This document shows, piece by piece, positions 968 through 44,642 of a stretch of DNA of 64,000 bases. A model generated the notes under the pieces. That model made no database searches. It saw only the letters and a program-made list of their open reading frames with translations, and was not told the DNA's origin. The DNA lies in contig LCMS01000007.1 in NCBI GenBank assembly GCA_001002765.1, forward strand, positions 8,170-72,169. Reading direction: 5' to 3'. The stretch's first letter is position 1. Each line of letters opens with the position of its first letter. This DNA comes from Candidatus Uhrbacteria bacterium GW2011_GWE2_46_68 (lineage in GTDB: Bacteria > Patescibacteriota > Patescibacteriia > UBA9934 > GWF2-40-263). The position numbers and the translations under genes are program-made.

Positions 968-984
968 ATCCCATTTTTGAGAAC

Positions 985-1027
985 GAAAAAACGGCTGGCA
1001 CTGCGTGTGCTAGCCGTTTGTTGTAGC
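985..1027 (-). terminator. Rho-independent terminator (bidirectional hairpin between convergent genes)
   Basis: A-run then imperfect 12-bp stem aacggctggcac/gtgctagccgtt (989-1018). On the minus strand it is followed by TTTTTTCGTTCTC, 20 nt after the stop of the 1038-2432 gene. Confidence 0.6.
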
Positions 1028-1037
1028 TTAGAAGCAG

Positions 1038-2432
1038 CTACTCGTTGGTATCGTCGGGCATCTCTGGCGGAGCCTCGCTGTCGGCGATCTGTTCGGCCGC
1101 AGGCACCTGGTCGGGTGTCTCATCGGGCCGTACCTCTTCCTCGGGAGGCTTGGCTTCCTCCTGCGGGGCATCGGGAGTCTTCTCGCACTTGGTCTTGAAA
1201 ATCCAGGCACGCAGGGCGCGGTGCCAGGGGTTTCGAGCATCGAAGACCACCTCACTACCGAAGATCAGGCTCATGCGAGCCGTCACGATCGGGGCGACCA
1301 GATCGCCCTCCTTGACCTGGCGGTACCAGTCCCGCCGCTCGCGTCCCTGGAGTGCTTCCGCCTGGGTGGGGAAGGCAACTCCGGTCCAGGAAATCGTGGG
1401 ATCCGTGATCCTGTCCCAGCGCAGCCGTACCTCCTCGAGGATCACAGGCTCGGCCTGACGAAGCAGGCTCACAGCCAACTGGTGGCACATGGGAACCGTG
1501 TCCGTCTGCACGGTCAATCCGGAGTCCAAAACGACCTTTTGGAGACGTTCATCACCAGGGTTGCCGATGATCCTCGCGATCATCTGACGCACGGTCCAAG
1601 GGGACTTGCTATAGGGATCAGGATCGATCTGTTCGATCGTCACACCCAGAAGGGCGAAGGGGTCGATGCCGGCCCGATCTTCCACATCCATGTTGATCTC
1701 GAAGCGATCGAGGTTCACATCCTTGGCCGCGCCAAGGACCGTGATATAGGCCCGTCCTTCCATGAACTTGTTGACTGCAAACGCGGTCTCGATCGGCTTG
1801 CCCTTTCCTGAAGTGGGCAAGTTGTCACTCATCTTATCGAGGAACAGCTGCATGCCCATGCACGATCCGATGAAATACCCGGCCTTCTGATCTTCCCCGT
1901 GGGTGGGGGTGAAGGCAAAGACGATCGAACCCATGGTCCGCAGGATATGCGGAATCTCGGGGATCATGGTCTGGCCCTCACGATCGAGGAGTCGATTCAA
2001 TTGATCGAGGAGATCAGGGTTGGCGTATCCGAAGGGGAGGAGCTTCCAGTACTGACCCTTGCGATCCCAGGGCGCCGGACGCATGAGAAGACCTGGCACA
2101 CCGCCTTGGGTCAAGGGATGACCCTTCTTGAACTCAACACCGAAAGGATTGAAGAGGCGTACGCGCACGACATGTGCGCGGCCATCTTCGACGATCCTGG
2201 CATTGGCCTGGAGGACGACATCATCGCCCACCTTGACCGGGGCGAAGTTCACGGCCACGGCCTGGTACTTGTTGGTGCCAGGCTGGCGCAAGGTGCGCTC
2301 CTTGACCTCTTGGGCTCCACCCTTGACGGTTTCACCCGCCAAGGTGAACAGGTCGAGGATGATGCGGGTCCAGGCAATCGGAAGAGAGTCGACCGCAAGC
2401 GCGGTCTTCGGGAGCTCATGGGTTGTGGTCAC
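1038..2432 (-). CDS. hypothetical protein, compositionally foreign (high GC), acidic Pro-rich C-terminal tail
   Basis: 464-aa ORF spanning the whole GC-rich block; GTG start at 2432 preceded by AGGAGG 5-6 nt upstream; balanced protein-like composition; no family recognised by eye. Confidence 0.6.
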   Translation of the reverse strand: MTTTHELPKTALAVDSLPIAWTRIILDLFTLAGETVKGGAQEVKERTLRQPGTNKYQAVAVNFAPVKVGDDVVLQANARIVEDGRAHVVRVRLFNPFGVEFKKGHPLTQGGVPGLLMRPAPWDRKGQYWKLLPFGYANPDLLDQLNRLLDREGQTMIPEIPHILRTMGSIVFAFTPTHGEDQKAGYFIGSCMGMQLFLDKMSDNLPTSGKGKPIETAFAVNKFMEGRAYITVLGAAKDVNLDRFEINMDVEDRAGIDPFALLGVTIEQIDPDPYSKSPWTVRQMIARIIGNPGDERLQKVVLDSGLTVQTDTVPMCHQLAVSLLRQAEPVILEEVRLRWDRITDPTISWTGVAFPTQAEALQGRERRDWYRQVKEGDLVAPIVTARMSLIFGSEVVFDARNPWHRALRAWIFKTKCEKTPDAPQEEAKPPEEEVRPDETPDQVPAAEQIADSEAPPEMPDDTNE

Positions 2433-2590
2433 GAGGACCTCCTTGTTTTGGGGTTAAAGGAACGTTTGCCGCAGTTGGCAGCCAAAGACAGTAGGAAAAA
2501 TAAGGGGTTTAGTCAAGGTACAAGTTACCACCTTTTGACAGAACCCCTTATTTTTGTTAGGTTTTAGTGCTTTCTTTCCGGAGGAAACCC

Positions 2591-3466
2591 ATGAAAGAAG
2601 CCATTGAAGCTCTTTTCACAGACAATGGGAAACCCACGCAAGCCCACGTGGATGCACTCAAGGGAGTGCGCTCACTTAATGATGTGAGCGCAGATGGAAT
2701 TGATCCCGATGCCATGGATCGCTTTTCTTATTTTCTCGACGCCCCTAAGGAAACGGCAGAAAGTCAGGCAGATGAAGATCGTCGCAGCCTTCTTCTTGCC
2801 CTTGCCAGCCATCTGGCTCCTACATCAAAAAACGAAAAACCTGATGAACCAAAAGAGCCGCGGCGTCCAATCGTACCTTCGAAACAAGAAAAAGAAGAAA
2901 AAAAGAAGGGAGTTCGAGACCCCAGAGAAAGTATACTTGGAGCATTTGATACAGTAGAAATCGAAGAACAAACAGGAGAGGATGAGGAGGAAGAAGTGGA
3001 AGAAGAGCGTCCGCAAAGAGGGAATCGTCGGGGACAACAAAACGGCGACCGTCCCAACGGACGCACACGAGATCAAGATGATCAGCAATATCGTCGTGAT
3101 CGTTGGCAACAAAGAAAGGATGAAAAAAAAGATCCTCAACCTCCACGGCCTGCTATTGTACAGGGAAGCCAAGATCATCTTCTCGCTCGTGTTCAAGCGG
3201 ATCCTCAATGGGTTGAGTTGCGGAATTACATTTTCGGAGAAATCTTGATTGTGCGAGGAAAAGATTCCACAAAGGTTGCCGGAGCCCTTTGGCAACTCTC
3301 TGAGCTTACTGATAGGTTGGTACATGGAGAAGTCATGGCAAGCCGATACACACACAATATGCGCGTTTTGGCCGGTGAAATGGTAACGAATCTTCACCTG
3401 CACAAAGATATCGAAAATCCCGCATGGTTTGAGAAACGCTACGGAGCGCTCCCCAAGAGTGTCTAA
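2591..3466 (+). CDS. hypothetical protein with central K/E/R/D/Q-rich low-complexity region
   Basis: ATG at 2591 with GGAGG 6 nt upstream (the longer ORF from 2567 lacks an RBS); ordered C-terminal ~130 aa. Confidence 0.55.
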   Translation: MKEAIEALFTDNGKPTQAHVDALKGVRSLNDVSADGIDPDAMDRFSYFLDAPKETAESQADEDRRSLLLALASHLAPTSKNEKPDEPKEPRRPIVPSKQEKEEKKKGVRDPRESILGAFDTVEIEEQTGEDEEEEVEEERPQRGNRRGQQNGDRPNGRTRDQDDQQYRRDRWQQRKDEKKDPQPPRPAIVQGSQDHLLARVQADPQWVELRNYIFGEILIVRGKDSTKVAGALWQLSELTDRLVHGEVMASRYTHNMRVLAGEMVTNLHLHKDIENPAWFEKRYGALPKSV

Positions 3467-3468
3467 GA

Positions 3469-3500
3469 CCGCCACGCCAGCGGTCTTTTACTTTTTTGAT
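3469..3500 (+). terminator. Rho-independent terminator
   Basis: aagaccgc-cacgcca-gcggtctt hairpin followed by TTACTTTTTTG immediately after the stop at 3466. Confidence 0.6.
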
Positions 3501-3564
3501 AAACAAAGGGGTCAGGTCTTTACCTTTTACCTTATCCAATATTTTGGCTTTAAACTTGCTTATT

Positions 3565-3584
3565 CCGCGCAGCTTGCTGCGCGG
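3565..3584. repeat. GC-rich palindromic hairpin CCGCGCAGC-TT-GCTGCGCGG (copy 1)
   Basis: Perfect palindrome inside the IR-bounded element; a second near-identical copy lies 240 bp downstream. Confidence 0.55.
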
Positions 3585-3804
3585 TTACCGCTTAAGTACG
3601 ATAGGAGGGTATGAGAGCGGTCAGAACAACAGAACACAATGTTTATCAAAGAACTTTGGGGCGGTGAACTCTGGACGGATGGTTTCTTTGTCTCCACGGT
3701 TGGTGAAGGAGGAAACCGAGACGTGATTCGGATATATGTTGAGAAACAAGGAAACAAATCAGATATCACCCAGCTTAAGCTTTTCAATTTTTAACCTCTG
3801 ATAC

Positions 3805-3824
3805 CGTGCAGCTTGCTGCGCGGA
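3805..3824. repeat. GC-rich palindromic hairpin CCGTGCAGC-TT-GCTGCGCGG (copy 2, stem extended by aacctc/gaggtt)
   Basis: Direct repeat of the 3565 hairpin with one substitution. Confidence 0.55.
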
Positions 3825-4037
3825 GGTTCATATAAAACTCATTATTTTTATTTATTGAATTAATAAGGTTTTTGAAACAAAGTTGATTATGCGTTGTTTT
3901 ACTCATCACCTGTGAAAAAGTTTGATCTCTTCGTATATAGTCTCAAAAAACAAGAAATATCCTCCGTTAACACAACAAAAGGGTAAAAGGTAAAGACCTG
4001 ACCCCCTTTGATATCCCCAGTTCACCCCTTTTCACCG

Positions 4038-10705: not shown

Positions 10706-10714
10706 ATTTTTTCT

Positions 10715-11128
10715 ATGTCCCATACCTGTAAAGCCGCCTTGGTGCGTTGTATGGATTTTCGACTAGATCCGGAACTTACGGATTATGTACGTTCACAAAA
10801 TCTTCTGCACGACATTGATGTCATCTCGATTGCCGGAGCGGCAAAAAATATCGTGGATGATCCGCAAGGGTTTGTCATGACCCAAATCGGACTATCCGTG
10901 AAACTTCATGAAATCACCGAAGTGCATTTGATGCATCATTCCGATTGCGGAGCCTACGGTGGAAGCAAGATGTTTGCTTCTTTGGAAGAAGAAAAAGCCA
11001 TGCATATCGAGCAAATGCAAAAAGCAAAAGAGGTGATTTCCACCTCTTATCCCTCATTGATCGTTACAATGTTTTTTGCGGTGATCGGGGAAAATCAACA
11101 CATAAGTTTTGTGGAAAAAGTGGGCTAA
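10715..11128 (+). CDS. compact Cab-type beta-carbonic-anhydrase-like protein (paralog A)
   Basis: 137 aa; zinc-ligand motifs CMDFR (CxDxR) and HHSDCG (HxxCG) spaced ~60 residues; VISIAGAAKNIVDD and EVHLMHHSDCGAY align with M. thermoautotrophicum Cab (VIRNAGGRVTDD / VVLHHTDCGAQ); starts 10 nt after atpC. Confidence 0.7.
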   Translation: MSHTCKAALVRCMDFRLDPELTDYVRSQNLLHDIDVISIAGAAKNIVDDPQGFVMTQIGLSVKLHEITEVHLMHHSDCGAYGGSKMFASLEEEKAMHIEQMQKAKEVISTSYPSLIVTMFFAVIGENQHISFVEKVG

Positions 11129-25114: not shown

Positions 25115-25525
25115 CTAGACAGGTTCTACACAAGTGATCCGATCGTTTTCCCCGATCACCGCAAAAAACATTAGAACGGTCAATGAGGGATAAGAGGTGG
25201 AAATCACCTCTTTTGCTTTTTGCATTTGCTCGATATGCATGGCTTTTTCTTCTTCCAAAGAAGCAAACATCCTGCTTCCACCATAGGCTCCGCAATCGGA
25301 ATGATGCATCAAATGCACTTCGGTGATTTCATGAAGTTTTACGGATAGTCCGATTTGGGTCATGACAAACCCTTGCGGATCATCCACGATATTTTTTGCC
25401 GCTCCGGCAATCGAGATCACATCAATGTCGTGCAGAAGATTTTGTGCACGTACATAATCCGTGAGTTCCGGATCCAGCCGAAAATCCATACAACGCACCA
25501 AGGCGGCTTTGCAGGTATGAGACAT
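25115..25525 (-). CDS. compact Cab-type beta-carbonic-anhydrase-like protein (paralog B)
   Basis: 136 aa; protein near-identical over most of its length and ~93% nt identical to paralog A where compared (diverges only over the last ~16 residues); same CMDFR / HHSDCG motifs; opposite orientation. Confidence 0.7.
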   Translation of the reverse strand: MSHTCKAALVRCMDFRLDPELTDYVRAQNLLHDIDVISIAGAAKNIVDDPQGFVMTQIGLSVKLHEITEVHLMHHSDCGAYGGSRMFASLEEEKAMHIEQMQKAKEVISTSYPSLTVLMFFAVIGENDRITCVEPV

Positions 25526-25539
25526 AGGAGGACCTCGTT

Positions 25540-26355: not shown

Positions 26356-27768
26356 ATGCGTCAATGGATTGCTTTTTTAAGTGTTGTCTCCATTTGTACT
26401 TCTCTTACTCCCCTCCCCCTCTTTGCAGAAACCGAGGTGGATTACAATTATCTTCTCGGGGACGATGAACTCACGGATATGACGGCCATGGATTTTGAAA
26501 CCCTCGAGGCCTTCTTAACTCGCGGGTCACTTGCAGACTATGAAACCGAGGATGTAAATGGACATTGGGAATCTGCCGCTCAAGTTATTTGGGATTCTGC
26601 TCAAGCATTTGATCTCAACCCGCAATTCATCTTGACGATGTTGCAAAAAGAACAAAGTCTCATTGAGGATCCTGATCCATCACAAGATCAGCTCGCATGG
26701 GCCATGGGCTATGCGGTTTGTGACGATTGTTCCAAATCTGATCCTTTTATTCAAAAATACAAAGGCTTTGGTAATCAAATCTATTACGCATCCAAGCGCA
26801 TTCGTGAATCTTTTTTGGATGATCTGGAATCTCGCGGTTATACCGAAAACGGTCTGGGACCCGGAATCGAAATCGAAATTGATGACATCTTGGTTGTGCC
26901 TGCCAATAATGCCACCTCGATTCTCTATGCCTACACACCGCATCTTCAAGGTAATGAAAATTTTTCTTTAATCTGGGATCGTTGGTTCACTCACACCTAT
27001 CCAAGCGGTACTTTACTTCAAGACAAAGAAACCGGCGGCATCTGGTATATCCAATTTGGCCGACGTCGCGCCATCACCTCTCGATCTGCTTATCTATCCC
27101 GCTTCCCTACTCAACCGGTCATCGCGGTATCTGAATCTGTCATCAATCAATATCCCGAGGGTGATCCCATCAGTTTTCCTAACTACTCTCTCTTACGCTC
27201 TCCCCGAGGTACGGTGTATTTGATTGTGGATGATACGCGTCGAGGAATTGATTCCCAAGAGGCGTTCCGTGCTATTGGATTTAACTCGGACGAAATCATT
27301 GATGTGACATGGGACGATCTTGCTGTTTATGAAGAAGGAGAACCTATCACGATCGCTTCTGTCTCTCCCGGCGGATCTTTGATGCAAAACACGACAACCG
27401 GAGGAGTCTATTTTGTGGAAGAAGGAAAAAAATATCCGATCATGTCCAAACAAATTTTAAAAGCGCGTTTTGATGGATGGGCTATTTTTCCACAATCACC
27501 GGAGGATTTGGAAGCCTATCCCACAGGTGATTATGTCACCTTCCCCGATGGAACCTTGGTCTTAGCCGAAGGATCACCTGACGTCTTTGTGATCTCCGAA
27601 GGTAAACGCCGCCTGATTCCGGATGAATCCACTTTTTTGGCTTATGGCTGGGAGTGGCCACAAATCATCGTAACCAACGAACGCTCAGTTCTCCTCCAAT
27701 CTTTGGGAGAAGAAATACCTTCGATTTTAGATCAGTCTGAATCCACTATTTTTGATACGGCTTATTAA
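26356..27768 (+). CDS. secreted protein with four ~55-aa C-terminal repeats (putative cell-envelope binding)
   Basis: Signal peptide (MRQWIAFLSVVSICTSLTPLPLFA). Four degenerate repeats of the form G-T/S-L...GG-I/V-Y/W...G-K/R-R-R-x-I (GTLLQDKETGGIWYIQFGRRRAI, GTVYLIVDDTRRGI, GSLMQNTTTGGVYFVEEGKKYPI, GTLVLAEGSPDVFVISEGKRRLI). Stop overlaps the first paralog. Confidence 0.6.
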   Translation: MRQWIAFLSVVSICTSLTPLPLFAETEVDYNYLLGDDELTDMTAMDFETLEAFLTRGSLADYETEDVNGHWESAAQVIWDSAQAFDLNPQFILTMLQKEQSLIEDPDPSQDQLAWAMGYAVCDDCSKSDPFIQKYKGFGNQIYYASKRIRESFLDDLESRGYTENGLGPGIEIEIDDILVVPANNATSILYAYTPHLQGNENFSLIWDRWFTHTYPSGTLLQDKETGGIWYIQFGRRRAITSRSAYLSRFPTQPVIAVSESVINQYPEGDPISFPNYSLLRSPRGTVYLIVDDTRRGIDSQEAFRAIGFNSDEIIDVTWDDLAVYEEGEPITIASVSPGGSLMQNTTTGGVYFVEEGKKYPIMSKQILKARFDGWAIFPQSPEDLEAYPTGDYVTFPDGTLVLAEGSPDVFVISEGKRRLIPDESTFLAYGWEWPQIIVTNERSVLLQSLGEEIPSILDQSESTIFDTAY

Positions 27769-27775
27769 GTCGCTT

Positions 27776-29149
27776 ATGTTTCCTTTTTCACACTCTTCCC
27801 GTCGCGATGGTATAGATCGATCACCTTCCGAATCCGTCGCTCATCCCTTTGCCGCCCCTGCGGAGGCAGTCCCGCCTGTGGCGGATCCCGCCGTAGGCGG
27901 GAGGGTCCGGCGTACTTCGGCAAACCTAAGCGAAGCCATCATGGATTCGGTTTCAAGTGTCCGTGATTCTCTTCACGAACGTTATCGCTCACACTTCAAT
28001 ATTCTCCGCAGGGAGATTATTGATTTTACAAAAGCTCACGACATTCCAATAGAATCTCTTGCCAAACCAGATCTCCTCCGTGAAGCTGCCGGCAAACTCT
28101 CCACCCAAGATCTTGAGCGACTTGCCAATCTTCTTGAACGCTTTGAGTACCTCATTGTCAAAAAAGAACCTGGGAAAGAAAAACTCCCCGAACATCTTCA
28201 AGAAATTGAGCGTCTTTACCATCTTGAGGATCAATACACTTCCCAAGTGACATTTCTTGAATACGTAGGGATTCTCAAAGAAGGAGCCATTATTGGGATA
28301 GATGGTCACGAGTACCCCATCCCAAAGCTTGAACAAATAGCTCTCCGTCTATTTGAACGCCGTGGCGAACTTTCCGCTAAGCACGACCAAGGTTTTACCA
28401 AACTTCTTTTGGTTCCTTTTGGAATGAACCTCGATATGCTTATCTCCACTCTCAAACAATTCCTTCTGGATTATAAAGGGTCCCATCCTGATTTTATGTT
28501 TGACACAGATGATCCCATCTCAAACATAAGAAAGCGCCTGAAAAGATCCGATACTACGGACACAGAAGCTTTTCAAAATGCAAATGGAGGAGATCATCAA
28601 GAACTTGTTTACTACCCACTGTTTTTTAATGAAAATCATCAAGGTAAAACAAAAACGAAAATCCTTGAAGATCAAAGTGTTAACCCAGCTTCCTTTCCTG
28701 GCTGGACAGTCCATTTGTTTCAACCTTCTGATCCTTCAAATCAACATTCCCTAGGCTTTGCCCCCATTCCCGAAGAAAAAGGAACAACCCAGGGAAATGA
28801 AATTCCTCGACAAGATTTGAAAACAGGAAAATACAGCTGTGAATATCTCGATATTCTTGGAAGTGCGAAACAACAAGATTCTCCTTATTGTCATGAATCC
28901 GGCCTCACCCCAGAGGACTGGATTAGTGCTTTCATGATGCATCTTCATGAAACCGGAAAACCTTTAGACGAGAATAAAAGTTGTTATCTTGTGGGAGCTT
29001 TTTTCCCTTCCCTTGGTATTCCGCGAGCTTCTTGGAGTATAGATTATATGGACGGGCGTAGTTATGGGAGTAATCGTGTATCTTTGAATATTCAATATAT
29101 TCACGGGACATCTTCTGACATAGGCTCTCGTTTTTCAGTGATTATTTAG
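27776..29149 (+). CDS. tandem paralog 1 of an unrecognised protein family
   Basis: ATG at 27776 (the ORF-track start at 27752 is TTG); conserved core EAIMDSVSSVRDSL...DLERLANLLERFEYL...GFTKLLLVPFGM shared with the next two genes; no signal peptide. Confidence 0.7.
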   Translation: MFPFSHSSRRDGIDRSPSESVAHPFAAPAEAVPPVADPAVGGRVRRTSANLSEAIMDSVSSVRDSLHERYRSHFNILRREIIDFTKAHDIPIESLAKPDLLREAAGKLSTQDLERLANLLERFEYLIVKKEPGKEKLPEHLQEIERLYHLEDQYTSQVTFLEYVGILKEGAIIGIDGHEYPIPKLEQIALRLFERRGELSAKHDQGFTKLLLVPFGMNLDMLISTLKQFLLDYKGSHPDFMFDTDDPISNIRKRLKRSDTTDTEAFQNANGGDHQELVYYPLFFNENHQGKTKTKILEDQSVNPASFPGWTVHLFQPSDPSNQHSLGFAPIPEEKGTTQGNEIPRQDLKTGKYSCEYLDILGSAKQQDSPYCHESGLTPEDWISAFMMHLHETGKPLDENKSCYLVGAFFPSLGIPRASWSIDYMDGRSYGSNRVSLNIQYIHGTSSDIGSRFSVII

Positions 29150-29157
29150 CTCTATTT

Positions 29158-30624
29158 ATGTCTCCTCTCCGTTCATCTTTCGAATCCACCCCATCCGTCA
29201 TCCCCACAGAGGCACATTCCTCCAATGACCGCCATCCCCGCGGAGGCGGGGATCCATCGTCTTCTGCGCTTCTTGGCGAAGCCATCATGGATTCTGTTTC
29301 AAGTGTCCGTGATTCTCTTCCCGAACGTTATCGCTCACACTTCAATATTCTCCGCAGCGAGATTATTGATTTCACAAAAGCTCACGGGATTCCAAAAGAA
29401 TCTCTTGGCAAGCCTGACCTCCTCCGCGAGGCGACCTGTAAACTTTCCACTTCAGATCTTGAACGACTTGCCAATCTTCTCGAACGCTTTGAGTATCTTG
29501 TGAAACACAAAGAACTCATGAAAGAAGACTATACTGAAGCCCTCGAGTATGTGGAGAAGTATTATCACCTCAAAAAGCAATACGATTCCCAAGTCTCCCT
29601 TCTTGAACAAGTAGGTATTCTTCATCCAAAGAAAAAATCAAAGCACATACAAAAACTTTCTACTTTTTTTCGCTCCCTTCTTCCTTATGGAAAAAAGAAA
29701 AGACCCGAAGTTTCAACTGTTCCTGAGACCCCAGAGATACTTTGTATAACTGGTATTGATGACAACGAGTATCCCATTCCCACACTTGAGCAGATTGCTT
29801 CTCGTCTCTTTGAGCGTCGTGAAACTCTAAAAACCAAACACGACCAAGGCTTTACCAAACTCCTCCTTGTTCCCTTTGGGATGAGTCTTGATAGTCTCCG
29901 AGAAACACTCAAACAATTCCTTCTTAAGTATAAGAAGGGTCATCCCTCTTTTGGTCTTGATACTGATAATCCTCTCTACACATGGTTAAACTATCAGGGA
30001 GCAGACATGGGGGATTTCCCAAACCTTGTCTATTATCCACAGTTTCTTACAAAAAAAGGTCATGGAGGGAAGACAAAAGCACAGATACTCAAAGAACAAT
30101 CCGAAGGACAATGGACCCCTGCCTTCGCAGGGGTGGCAGGAGGGAGTGGAACAAGGTTCCATGGCTGGATCGTTCATCTTCTCCAACCATCAAACCCAGA
30201 CTCACAAGACATCGAAGTTCCCATGGGCTTTGCCCTTATTCCTCGTGAAGGCCAAGAAACACCCAAAGGTGACCTCACCCCTCGTCCTTCTCTTGAAGCA
30301 GGTAAATCTCCTGATGAATATCTTTCCATTCTTCAAAAAGCTCAAGATGACAAAGGCTCTCCCTATCATGGTGAAACAGGCATGACTCCCGAAGATTGGA
30401 TCATGGCCTTTATGCTTCATCTTTCTGAAACAGGAAAACCACTGGACAACTTTGCAAATGGCATGGAGAGCATCTCTTACCTTACGGGAGCTTTTTTTCT
30501 TTCTTCCAGCCTTGTGCCAGGCGTGTATTGGAGCAGTGTTGATGATGGTCGGGCTTTTCTTGGCGGGGACGGATATTACGATCGAGCCAGCAATTTCGGC
30601 GCGCGATCTTCGGTGATCGTTTAA
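29158..30624 (+). CDS. tandem paralog 2 of the same family
   Basis: 488 aa; starts 8 nt after paralog 1; ends ...ARSSVIV-stop. Confidence 0.75.
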   Translation: MSPLRSSFESTPSVIPTEAHSSNDRHPRGGGDPSSSALLGEAIMDSVSSVRDSLPERYRSHFNILRSEIIDFTKAHGIPKESLGKPDLLREATCKLSTSDLERLANLLERFEYLVKHKELMKEDYTEALEYVEKYYHLKKQYDSQVSLLEQVGILHPKKKSKHIQKLSTFFRSLLPYGKKKRPEVSTVPETPEILCITGIDDNEYPIPTLEQIASRLFERRETLKTKHDQGFTKLLLVPFGMSLDSLRETLKQFLLKYKKGHPSFGLDTDNPLYTWLNYQGADMGDFPNLVYYPQFLTKKGHGGKTKAQILKEQSEGQWTPAFAGVAGGSGTRFHGWIVHLLQPSNPDSQDIEVPMGFALIPREGQETPKGDLTPRPSLEAGKSPDEYLSILQKAQDDKGSPYHGETGMTPEDWIMAFMLHLSETGKPLDNFANGMESISYLTGAFFLSSSLVPGVYWSSVDDGRAFLGGDGYYDRASNFGARSSVIV

Positions 30625-30630
30625 TCTTTG

Positions 30631-31915
30631 ATGTCTATGTCTCTTTTTCGACCAACTTTTGAATCCTCTCCCTCCGACACCCCTGCGGAGGCAGGGGTCC
30701 AGCGTACTTCGGCAAACTTCCACGAAGCCATCATGGATTCGATTTCAAGTGTTCGCGATTCTCTTCCCAAACAACACCGCGCGCACTTTGAAACTCTGCG
30801 TCAAGAGATCATCATTTTTACCGAGGTTCACGGGATTCCAAAAGAATCTCTTGGCAAGCCCGACCTCCTGCGCGAGGTGACCGGCAAACTCTCCACTTCA
30901 GATCTTGAGCGACTTGCCAATCTTCTCGAACGTTTTGAATATCTGCTTAAGAATGGGGAACCAAAGAAAGAAGAGATAGACCTTGTCAAAGCCATTGAGT
31001 ATGCAAAGGAGCATTATCATCTTCGTGAGCAATACGATTCTCAAGTAGAGCTTCTTGAGGAAGTGGGCATCCTTAAAGAAGGAGTCATCCTAGGCATAGA
31101 CGGTAACACCTATCCCATTCCCACCTTGGAACAAATAGCCGTCCGTCTTTTTGAACGACGTGAGACTCTCGAGACTAAACACAACCAAGGCTTTACCAAA
31201 CTCCTCCTCGTTCCCTTTGGCATGAGTCTTGATAGTCTCCAAGAAACACTCGAACAATTTCTTCTCGAGTACAAGAAGAATAATCCCTCCTTTAATCTAA
31301 ATATGGATGATCCTCTCTGCACATGGTCAGTATATCAAAGAGCAGACATCGGAGATTCCCCCAAGCTTGTCTATGAGCCACAGTCTTTTACAGAAGAAGG
31401 TCATGGGGGGAAGACAAAAGCACAGATACTCGAAGAACAATCCGAAGGACGATGGACCCCTGCCTTTGCAGGGGTGAAAGGAGAGAAGGGATTGGGAACC
31501 CCAGGTTGGACTGTTCATCTTCTCCAACCATCAAACCCGAACGAACAAGACATCGAAACTCCCAAAGGCTTTGCTCCCATTCCCAGAGAAGGACGGGGAA
31601 CACCTCAAGAAAATCTCGTCCCTCGACATCCCCTTGAAGCAGGTAAATCTCCCAATGAATATCTTTCCATTCTTCAAAATGCTCAAGGTGATAAAGACTC
31701 TCCCTATCATGGTGAAACAGGCATGACTCCCGAAGATTGGATCGAACCCCACAAACAAAGAATGTATCTCTTACCTTACAGGAGCTTTTTTTCGTTCCTC
31801 CATCGCTGTGCCTTGCATGTATTGGTGTCGCGGCAATCGTCAGGCCGACCTCGACAGGGATGATCCTCGTATTCGGGATGGGAACATTGGTTTGCGGTCT
31901 TCGGTGATCGTTTAA
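30631..31915 (+). pseudogene. tandem paralog 3; apparent frameshift near 31740-31765
   Basis: Matches paralog 2 through ...GETGMTPEDWI, then the frame slips relative to paralog 2. The conserved C-terminus (ISYLTGAFF...DDPRIRDGNIGLRSSVIV-stop at 31913-31915) continues in the +1 frame; the called ORF ends early at 31863. Confidence 0.5.
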
Positions 31916-43898: not shown

Positions 43899-44642
43899 TT
43901 AACGATCCTCCTCGGTTGTAAAATTCTCTTGCTCAGTGCGATGAAGAATAGAATCTGCATGAGGCATAAGAAGCATGAAATGATCCATAAGGATCTTTGC
44001 TGACTGACGCACTGCTTCTTCGGCAGTGATAGTACCATCTGTTTCAATGGCCATGACCAAACGATCGTAGTTCGTAATTTCTCCCACGCGTGTGTTTTCG
44101 ACGCGATATCCCACATTGCGCACAGGCGAAAAAAGGGCATCGATTGCAATCATTCCAATCACTTGACTCTCTGTTCGTCGTTCTTCAGTGGGACTATATC
44201 CACGACCTCGAGAAACAACCAATTCCATATCAATCTCTGATTTTGTATCAGTCAAGGTCGCAATTTTATGATCACCATTGATGATTTCCACATCGGCGTT
44301 TGCTTCAATATCCTCTGCGGTCACTTCCTTTTTCCCTGAAGTTTTCAAACGAAGCAAGACGGGTTCTTCTTGAAAACATTTCAAACGGAGACCTTTGATA
44401 TTTAAAATGATTTCCAGTGCATCTTCCTTCACACCTTCAATAGCCTGAAATTCATGGTTCACGCCTTTAATTTTTACAGCCGTGATAGCGGCGCCGGCAA
44501 GAGAAGAAAGCAATACACGTCGAAGAGCGTTTCCAATGGTTGTTCCATACCCATGAAAACAAGGCTCCATGATCAGTGTCCCCTCATGGGGCCTCTCACC
44601 TGCCTCAAAGGTGATGTGATTAGGAAGAAGGATATTCTCCAT
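43899..44642 (-). CDS. rpoA: DNA-directed RNA polymerase subunit alpha, N-terminal domain only
   Basis: 247 aa; alpha-NTD dimerisation/assembly region conserved; ORF ends 22 nt before rplQ, leaving no room for an alpha-CTD. Confidence 0.9.
   Translation of the reverse strand: MENILLPNHITFEAGERPHEGTLIMEPCFHGYGTTIGNALRRVLLSSLAGAAITAVKIKGVNHEFQAIEGVKEDALEIILNIKGLRLKCFQEEPVLLRLKTSGKKEVTAEDIEANADVEIINGDHKIATLTDTKSEIDMELVVSRGRGYSPTEERRTESQVIGMIAIDALFSPVRNVGYRVENTRVGEITNYDRLVMAIETDGTITAEEAVRQSAKILMDHFMLLMPHADSILHRTEQENFTTEEDR

Follow-up and report, generated by a model that had tools for sequence, protein, structure and literature searches.

A GC-rich orphan gene long resident in the tatD–atp slot of a Patescibacteria-like subclade

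The closest described counterparts of a bacterial gene whose base composition departs from that of its chromosome are compositionally atypical islands, together with the amelioration model of horizontally acquired genes put forward by Lawrence and Ochman. The gene considered here, hereafter the orphan, is a GC-rich open reading frame (ORF) lying between tatD and the atp operon in a 64,000-nt stretch of DNA from Candidatus Uhrbacteria bacterium GW2011_GWE2_46_68 (contig LCMS01000007.1, positions 8,170 to 72,169; hereafter the window), and it resembles island genes in that its GC content and codon usage deviate sharply, with sharp edges and a transposase remnant nearby. It differs from them in being orthologous and syntenic across lineages at a synonymous divergence near 1 and far deeper, and it departs from the amelioration model in that it is not decaying at the host's neutral rate and has no mobility machinery of its own. 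A second point of comparison is GC-biased gene conversion (gBGC), which in recombining bacterial genes raises the GC content of third codon positions (GC3) via non-optimal codons and has been reported to raise neighbouring intergenic GC as well (Lassalle et al. 2015, PMC4450053). The orphan is similar in that its GC3 is raised mainly through GC-ending codons outside the host's optimal set, and its locus looks hypervariable and thus plausibly recombines, as gBGC would need; it differs in that the excess (+13 to +42 GC3 points) concerns a single gene and ends at the ORF boundaries, the adjacent DNA not being enriched (spacers of GC 0.44–0.47). A sequence-only reading of this DNA had taken the orphan for a recently acquired gene, but comparison with related loci shows it to be a long-resident chromosomal gene rather than a recent import.

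The evidence for residency comes from the tatD–atp synteny of related genomes, a check proposed in that reading, which places the gene in the same slot in L089 and L091 (orthologues with 90% and 88% amino acid identity, the latter known from a partial sequence) and in L002, L003 and L090 (73%). The order in L002 is metG-cvpA-tatD, two extra lipoprotein ORFs, the orphan, a 94-aa ORF, a partner gene (described below) and atpI...atpC, and the proteins flanking the orphan are 56–95% identical to those of the window. The number of synonymous substitutions per site (dS) between the window and L002 is 0.94 for the orphan, within the range of 0.87–2.3 found for 10 neighbours, while between the window and L089 it is 0.43, compared with 0.41–1.15 in the neighbours. 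The gene was therefore in place before the split between the window and L002, approximately one substitution per synonymous site ago. Its non-synonymous rate is much lower (dN 0.21 and dN/dS 0.23 between the window and L002, dN/dS 0.13 between the window and L089) which, together with its own expression signals, supports the earlier view that this is a functional gene. Residency extends further back, since distant homologues (23–37% amino acid identity) adjoin tatD in L084, L087, L088 and L093, i.e. on every contig that is long enough. The order is metG-cvpA-tatD, partner (minus), orphan (plus) in L084; tatD, partner (minus), orphan (plus), atp operon in L087; and atpI, partner where present, orphan, tatD in L088 and L093. 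TatD in these four loci is 48–69% identical to that of the window, and AtpA of L087, a locus belonging to MAG GCA_964388785.1, is 78% identical.

The closest GTDB representatives by TatD (52–54% identity) are metagenome-assembled genomes (MAGs) of Patescibacteria and Uhrbacteria that keep the metG-tatD...atp macro-synteny (AtpD is up to 83% identical), and no relative of the orphan was found among GTDB representative genomes. More distant Patescibacteria (L005, L006 and L008) keep the metG-tatD...atp order as well, with a 2–3 kb gap between tatD and atpB that holds unrelated genes (methyltransferase-like; ABC-F ATPase and protease-like lipoprotein; RmuC and membrane proteins). Since unrelated genes occupy this gap in several related MAGs, the slot is variable across the wider group, and, judged from the loci at hand, the orphan family is its occupant throughout one subclade of Patescibacteria-like bacteria. 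Other contents of the slot were also noted. Three extra ORFs are found there in L002 (9472-9756 and 11643-12598), two of which are lipoprotein-like with raised GC (0.51 and 0.565), while the third is the 94-aa membrane ORF mentioned above, accompanied by a duplicated copy of the promoter region. In a Patescibacteria MAG (L004, 10821-13116), a full-length IS200-like Y1 transposase gene shares the slot with a 410-aa minus-strand gene that is GC-enriched (GC3 0.39 vs 0.24–0.31) and contains a short motif resembling the orphan family, homology with which was not demonstrable (hhalign probability 0.2).

The family to which the orphan belongs comprises about 10 clusters among about 15 billion proteins. 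An exhaustive hidden Markov model search of 1.84 billion cluster representatives returned eight further clusters only, and a word-indexed protein search with 10-sequence profiles, whether trimmed or not, returned three proteins only. The nearest non-orthologous relative among the about 15 billion proteins is 35% identical. Searches of Pfam, NCBIfam, PHROGs, PADLOC and PDB sequences with the orphan, its partner and relatives gave no match (for the anti-phage defence models of PADLOC, the orphan, the partner and six relatives were searched). Divergence within the family is pronounced, as illustrated by L088 and L093, whose TatD proteins are 82% identical and whose orphans are only 33% identical. 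Within the scope of these searches, the family is thus shown to be very small, undescribed, fast-evolving and confined to one subclade of Patescibacteria-like bacteria.

The orphan ORF has a GC content of 0.603 (0.65, 0.42 and 0.74 at the first, second and third codon positions) against a window mean of 0.449, which places it about 7 standard deviations above 1395-nt windows that do not overlap it (mean 0.445, standard deviation 0.022, maximum 0.508). GC3 is 0.29–0.49 in all other window ORFs of at least 200 aa, antisense shadows left out. The shift is sharp and falls at the ORF ends, with a GC content of 0.47 in the 70-nt spacer between tatD and the orphan (968-1037) and of 0.44 in the 158-nt spacer between the orphan and its partner (2433-2590). 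Translation starts from a GTG (2430-2432, minus strand), which is an ATG at the equivalent position in the 73% orthologue, and the gene ends in an intrinsic terminator whose 12-bp stem (990-1018) is followed by UUUUUU (folding free energy –29.3 kcal/mol, z –5.0). The encoded protein has an acidic Pro/Glu tail with a net charge of –14 over the last 44 residues. The earlier description of the gene, as a GC-rich outlier with a GC3 bias, sharp boundaries, its own Shine-Dalgarno sequence, GTG start and own-strand U-run terminator, and an acidic Pro/Glu-rich C-terminal tail, was therefore correct in every particular.

This excess is a family trait. Orphan GC3 is above that of the host in all nine low- or mid-GC loci, including L086 (0.39 vs 0.26 in the neighbours), L084 (0.54 vs 0.36–0.44), L094 (0.56 vs 0.40), L092 (0.57 vs 0.38), the window (0.74 vs 0.41), L089 (0.73 vs 0.40), L002 (0.80 vs 0.47) and L087 (0.92 vs 0.50), while there is hardly any excess, or none, in the GC-rich genomes L088 and L093. 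The partner in L087 is also GC-rich (0.66), its disordered linker having turned Ala/Pro-rich, and the 267-nt spacer between these two GC-rich ORFs has a GC content of 0.44. Two more ORFs with a GC content of 0.61–0.62 and GC3 of 0.67–0.76, against a background of about 0.49, are present 3' of the atp operon in L087 (20142-21394).

Codon usage departs from that of the host just as clearly. In the window orphan, Lys is encoded by AAG in 22/22 cases (22% in the host), Phe by TTC in 89% (17%), Gln by CAG in 82% (25%) and Ile by ATC in 84% (40%), while GAT and GGT are kept and GGG is avoided. Its relative synonymous codon usage (RSCU) is essentially uncorrelated with that of the host (r = 0.09), so that the GC and codon-usage check suggested by the sequence-only reading, run within the window, again singles it out. 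The correlation is much higher with the orphans of L002 (r = 0.90), L087 (0.76) and the GC-rich relatives (0.72), but only 0.48 with the ordinary genes of the GC-rich relatives, which are less extreme (AAG 0.65, TTC 0.46, CAG 0.40). The orphan's codons are not those preferred for translation in this host since the ribosomal-protein, rpoA and infA genes of the window, all confirmed by Pfam, have a GC3 of 0.25–0.43, and host translational selection was rejected on these grounds. Selection for mRNA structure was set aside because the z-scores relative to synonymous shuffles are inconsistent across three orthologues (–4.0 in the window, –0.8 in L002 and –2.3 in L087). Selection is known to hold some genes on non-optimal codons, the clock genes frq and kaiBC being examples, and the orphan resembles them in that its codon usage is persistently off the host's preferred set under purifying selection. 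It differs from them in that its amino acid composition is shifted too (30% vs 24% of Gly, Ala, Arg and Pro), which argues for a bias at the DNA level over purely codon-level selection or translational tuning.

Whether this composition is decaying or held can be approached through the synonymous changes on the window and L089 branches, polarised by parsimony with L002 as the outgroup. Changes from GC to AT (S→W) have affected 36/229 GC-ending sites in the orphan compared with 269/798 in the neighbours (Fisher p = 5e-8), i.e. half the per-site rate of neighbouring genes, whereas changes from AT to GC (W→S) have affected 16/66 AT-ending sites compared with 209/1104. The ratio of the odds ratios for the two directions is about 3.7 (z about 3.7), and the implied equilibrium GC3 of the orphan is 0.61 and that of the neighbours 0.36, although these polarised numbers are rough because the outgroup is near synonymous saturation. 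The contrast is conservative, since a GC-rich outgroup biases parsimony towards S→W in the orphan. The orphan does not follow the host's neutral substitution pattern, and its GC-rich coding has been either maintained or renewed time and again despite the host background.

The explanation that we consider rather probable is that the orphan is a resident, fast-evolving, subclade-specific gene whose GC-rich coding is kept by a gene-specific fixation bias, and whose product is perhaps a nucleic-acid binder. A GC excess that is found family-wide and is limited to the ORF, together with an S→W loss at half the rate of the neighbours, leads us to infer such a bias rather than the decay of foreign DNA. 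The bias might consist in selection on synonymous or DNA-level GC, or in GC-biased conversion at a recombining hypervariable locus. The protein would combine OB-like (oligonucleotide/oligosaccharide-binding) β-barrels with a helical domain, would end in a charged disordered tail and may act with the partner. A stronger version, in which the coding sequence of the family has been kept GC-richer than the host in the long term, and independently in several lineages, by a gene-specific force, is tentative and in our opinion doubtful. The force could be selection on how GC-rich the DNA or mRNA of the orphan transcription unit alone is, or a local GC-biased repair or conversion confined to the ORF. 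A possible reason for such selection would be that a nucleoid- or RNA-binding product has to be kept from binding to the AT-poor gene or message that encodes it.

Several points weigh against a gene-specific bias. No established mechanism would give one gene a GC bias of +30 points, and bacterial gBGC also tends to raise nearby intergenic GC (PMC4450053), whereas the spacers are host-like here. The polarised counts are rough, as mentioned above, and in absolute terms S→W exceeds W→S in the orphan (36 vs 16) while its GC3 of 0.74 is above the equilibrium value of 0.61, so that some amelioration may be in progress. GC-shifted amino acids are also what a long past in GC-rich surroundings would be expected to leave, and the 33% identity between the orphans of L088 and L093 can be explained equally well by allelic replacement and by rapid divergence. 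The family has only about 10 members, which are not phylogenetically independent. As for nucleic-acid binding, the fold matches are weak (TM 0.1–0.2, with PDB E-values above 1e-3) and no sequence profile backs any OB family.

The main rival is indeed that an allele from a GC-rich relative replaced the previous one long ago and has been ameliorating slowly ever since. The allele present in the hypervariable slot would have been imported before the window, L089 and L002 split, the donor being another genome of the subclade with a high GC content, such as L088 or L093 (about 60% GC), and would now be slowly losing its composition. Such a replacement, or an ancient import preceding the subclade radiation, is possible, if in our judgement unlikely. 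The GC-rich relatives do carry the family, with an orphan GC of 0.57–0.64 that is like that of the window, and the slot is one whose content varies between genomes and which attracts IS200-type elements. The low identity of the L088 and L093 orphans next to well-conserved TatD proteins, the absolute excess of S→W and the GC-shifted amino acid composition are all in line with this scenario. However, no candidate donor was found among the about 15 billion proteins, where the closest non-orthologous relative is the 35% identical protein mentioned above, and the GC excess stops exactly at the ORF ends, leaving a host-like spacer and partner. The per-site S→W rate, half that of the neighbours, and a ratio of W→S to S→W unlike the host pattern also speak against it, and the codons of the orphan (AAG 100%, TTC 89%, CAG 82%) go beyond those of the ordinary genes of GC-rich relatives. 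Furthermore, repeated imports from GC-richer donors would be needed in at least four separate lineages.

That the orphan is a recent foreign gene, delivered from a phage, a plasmid or an unrelated bacterium as part of an island (968-4010) also containing an element bounded by inverted repeats (IRs), as the sequence-only reading had it, seems very improbable, in spite of a composition and codon usage unlike those of any other gene in the window and of the nearby transposase remnant. Orthologues occupy the identical slot with a dS like that of the flanking housekeeping genes, and deep homologues are found beside tatD at the same locus. No relative is present in IMG/VR, INPHARED phage genomes or PLSDB plasmids. 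The capsid and portal families that had been suggested for testing find no support either, the best PHROG match being non-significant (E 0.21) and Foldseek matches in PDB and BFVD including no capsid or portal protein. The island itself does not hold together. The partner is ancestral and host-like in composition, and the IRs, with 34-nt arms at 3498-3531 and 3982-4015, enclose only a 51-aa ORF (3639-3794), which corresponds to the remaining C-terminal part of an IS200-like Y1 transposase, with two copies of a GCAGCTTGCTGCGCGG hairpin flanking it. The entire element is missing from the otherwise collinear L089, where it is replaced by a short unrelated stretch while both the orphan and the partner are present, and it is therefore an independent, lineage-specific insertion. 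Moreover, neither a tRNA (tRNA scan) nor an integrase (Pfam search) was found in the window, an Rfam scan of which was empty, and a repeat search revealed no template repeat of the diversity-generating retroelement type for the orphan.

Finally, the possibility of an artefact, either contaminant DNA joined by misassembly (raised in the earlier reading as a potential refutation) or a non-coding or antisense-coded region that is open merely through GC richness, is practically negligible, for the long antisense ORFs that overlap the gene are expected from its composition and shorter than in synonymous shuffles (257 aa observed vs mean 333 aa), which led to the rejection of an overlapping antisense gene, the dN/dS values hold for the annotated frame, the Shine-Dalgarno sequence and start codon are conserved, and the same junctions are found in six loci (L001, L002, L003, L089, L090 and L091) from independent JGI, ENA and Logan assemblies.

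An idea of what the orphan protein might do comes from an AlphaFold2 (AF2) model built from a 10-sequence alignment (pLDDT, the predicted local distance difference test score, 73.9; pTM, the predicted TM score, 0.52), a model from two sequences being unusable (pLDDT 36). It predicts N-terminal helices at residues 17-46, a β-rich half (58-235) with two β-barrel regions (approximately residues 55-235), a helical domain (approximately 258-416) bearing the family motifs DPFxxLG and NPWHRxLRxW, and an acidic disordered tail (422-464). In residues 58-133, the predicted succession of three strands, a short helix and two strands would fit an OB fold. Foldseek gave weak matches in PDB to HIN-200 tandem OB domains (E 5e-3), CST, uS17/eS11, eIF1A and the OB domain of ExoVII, and in BFVD to a phage ribosomal protein S1 (E 2.5e-4, probability 0.99), to baculovirus LEF-3 single-stranded DNA-binding (SSB) proteins and to S1-like domains. 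These weak matches agree with each other, and multi-OB-fold proteins (HIN-200, S1 repeats, LEF-3 SSB and CST) are the best structural neighbours of the model. A charged disordered C-terminal tail is, in addition, a feature common in SSB-like and nucleoid proteins. The orphan differs from multi-OB-fold proteins in lacking sequence-profile similarity (no curated OB-family profile in Pfam, NCBIfam or PDB sequences matched it or nine relatives), in the additional helical domain of about 160 residues that carries the two motifs, and in the charge of the tail, which flips between acidic and basic within the family. In the window subclade the tail is acidic, with net charges of –14, –13 and –7, while it is rich in lysine in P0004, P0006 and P0010, and P0008 and P0009 lack it. 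A J-domain, suggested by the DPFxxLGV motif, was considered and dropped since an HPD motif is absent at the appropriate spacing and Pfam DnaJ gives no match. The model would be consistent with a nucleic-acid-binding factor working with the partner, a prediction that is tentative and more probably wrong than right.

The partner, a divergent gene (Table 1), encodes a protein in which a long, charged and disordered linker is predicted to connect a short N-terminal domain to a C-terminal domain of about 100 aa. Its homologues adjoin the orphan in seven other loci (L002, L084, L087, L089, L092, L093 and L094), the arrangement being mostly head-to-head across the family. The linkers are long and charged or Ala/Pro-rich, and one partner ends in a membrane helix. 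The putative promoters of the two genes are mirror images of each other, the spacer of the orphan promoter (AAACCCCTTATTTT) mirroring that of the partner promoter, with the sequence AACCCCTTATTTT common to both. The 20-nt motif TTGACNNAACCCCTTATTTT has exactly two copies in the 64 kb, both in the spacer between the two genes, where they form a 21-nt inverted repeat. The promoter motif is conserved in L089 and L002, and L084 has an analogous back-to-back TTGACA arrangement. Such mirror-image promoters suggest that the orphan and its partner may be co-regulated.

Table 1. The orphan gene, its partner and their putative expression signals (positions in the window)
Feature	Position	Strand	Details
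GC-rich orphan ORF	1038..2432	minus	464 aa; basis: ORF list, composition, purifying selection, family, AF2 model
Intrinsic terminator of orphan gene	984..1018	minus	stem 990-1001/1007-1018, U-run encoded by 984-989
Shine-Dalgarno AAGGAGG	2438..2444	minus	5 nt 5' of GTG; kept in L089 and L002
Putative orphan promoter	2488..2516	minus	TTGACT, 17-nt spacer, TACTGT
Putative partner promoter	2535..2563	plus	TTGACA, 17-nt spacer, TAGGTT; mirror image of orphan's
Divergent partner gene	2591..3466	plus	291 aa from ATG 2591; GGAGG 2580-2584; GC 0.48
Terminator-like hairpin and T-run 3' of partner gene	3465..3497	plus	–

The window has other features that are worth recording. A 404-nt inverted duplication (10713-11116 and 25124-25527), whose copies are 95% identical and lie 14 kb apart, carries in each copy a Pro_CA_2 gene (putative carbonic anhydrase). 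Three tandem paralogous genes of about 410–490 aa (27752-31863) are 76–84% identical over stretches of a few hundred nt, with 35-nt palindrome-containing repeats at about 30101, 30678 and 31442. The product of rpoA (43899-44642) is 247 aa long and matches only the dimerisation and insert domains in Pfam, so that the C-terminal domain of the α subunit appears to be missing.

Compositional outliers are routinely taken as recent horizontal transfers, yet within these 64 kb the strongest outlier is syntenic, resident and under purifying selection. The orphan is thus a concrete counter-example, its GC-rich coding having persisted or recurred throughout a subclade, and offers a tractable system in which to ask what can set the base composition of individual bacterial genes. 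Attention is also drawn to an uncharacterised, lineage-specific gene pair of Patescibacteria that evolves unusually fast and may bind nucleic acids. Should a gene-specific force be at work, composition-based detection of transfer could be fooled by resident genes, and the orphan would point to a new determinant that acts locally on the base composition of streamlined bacteria.

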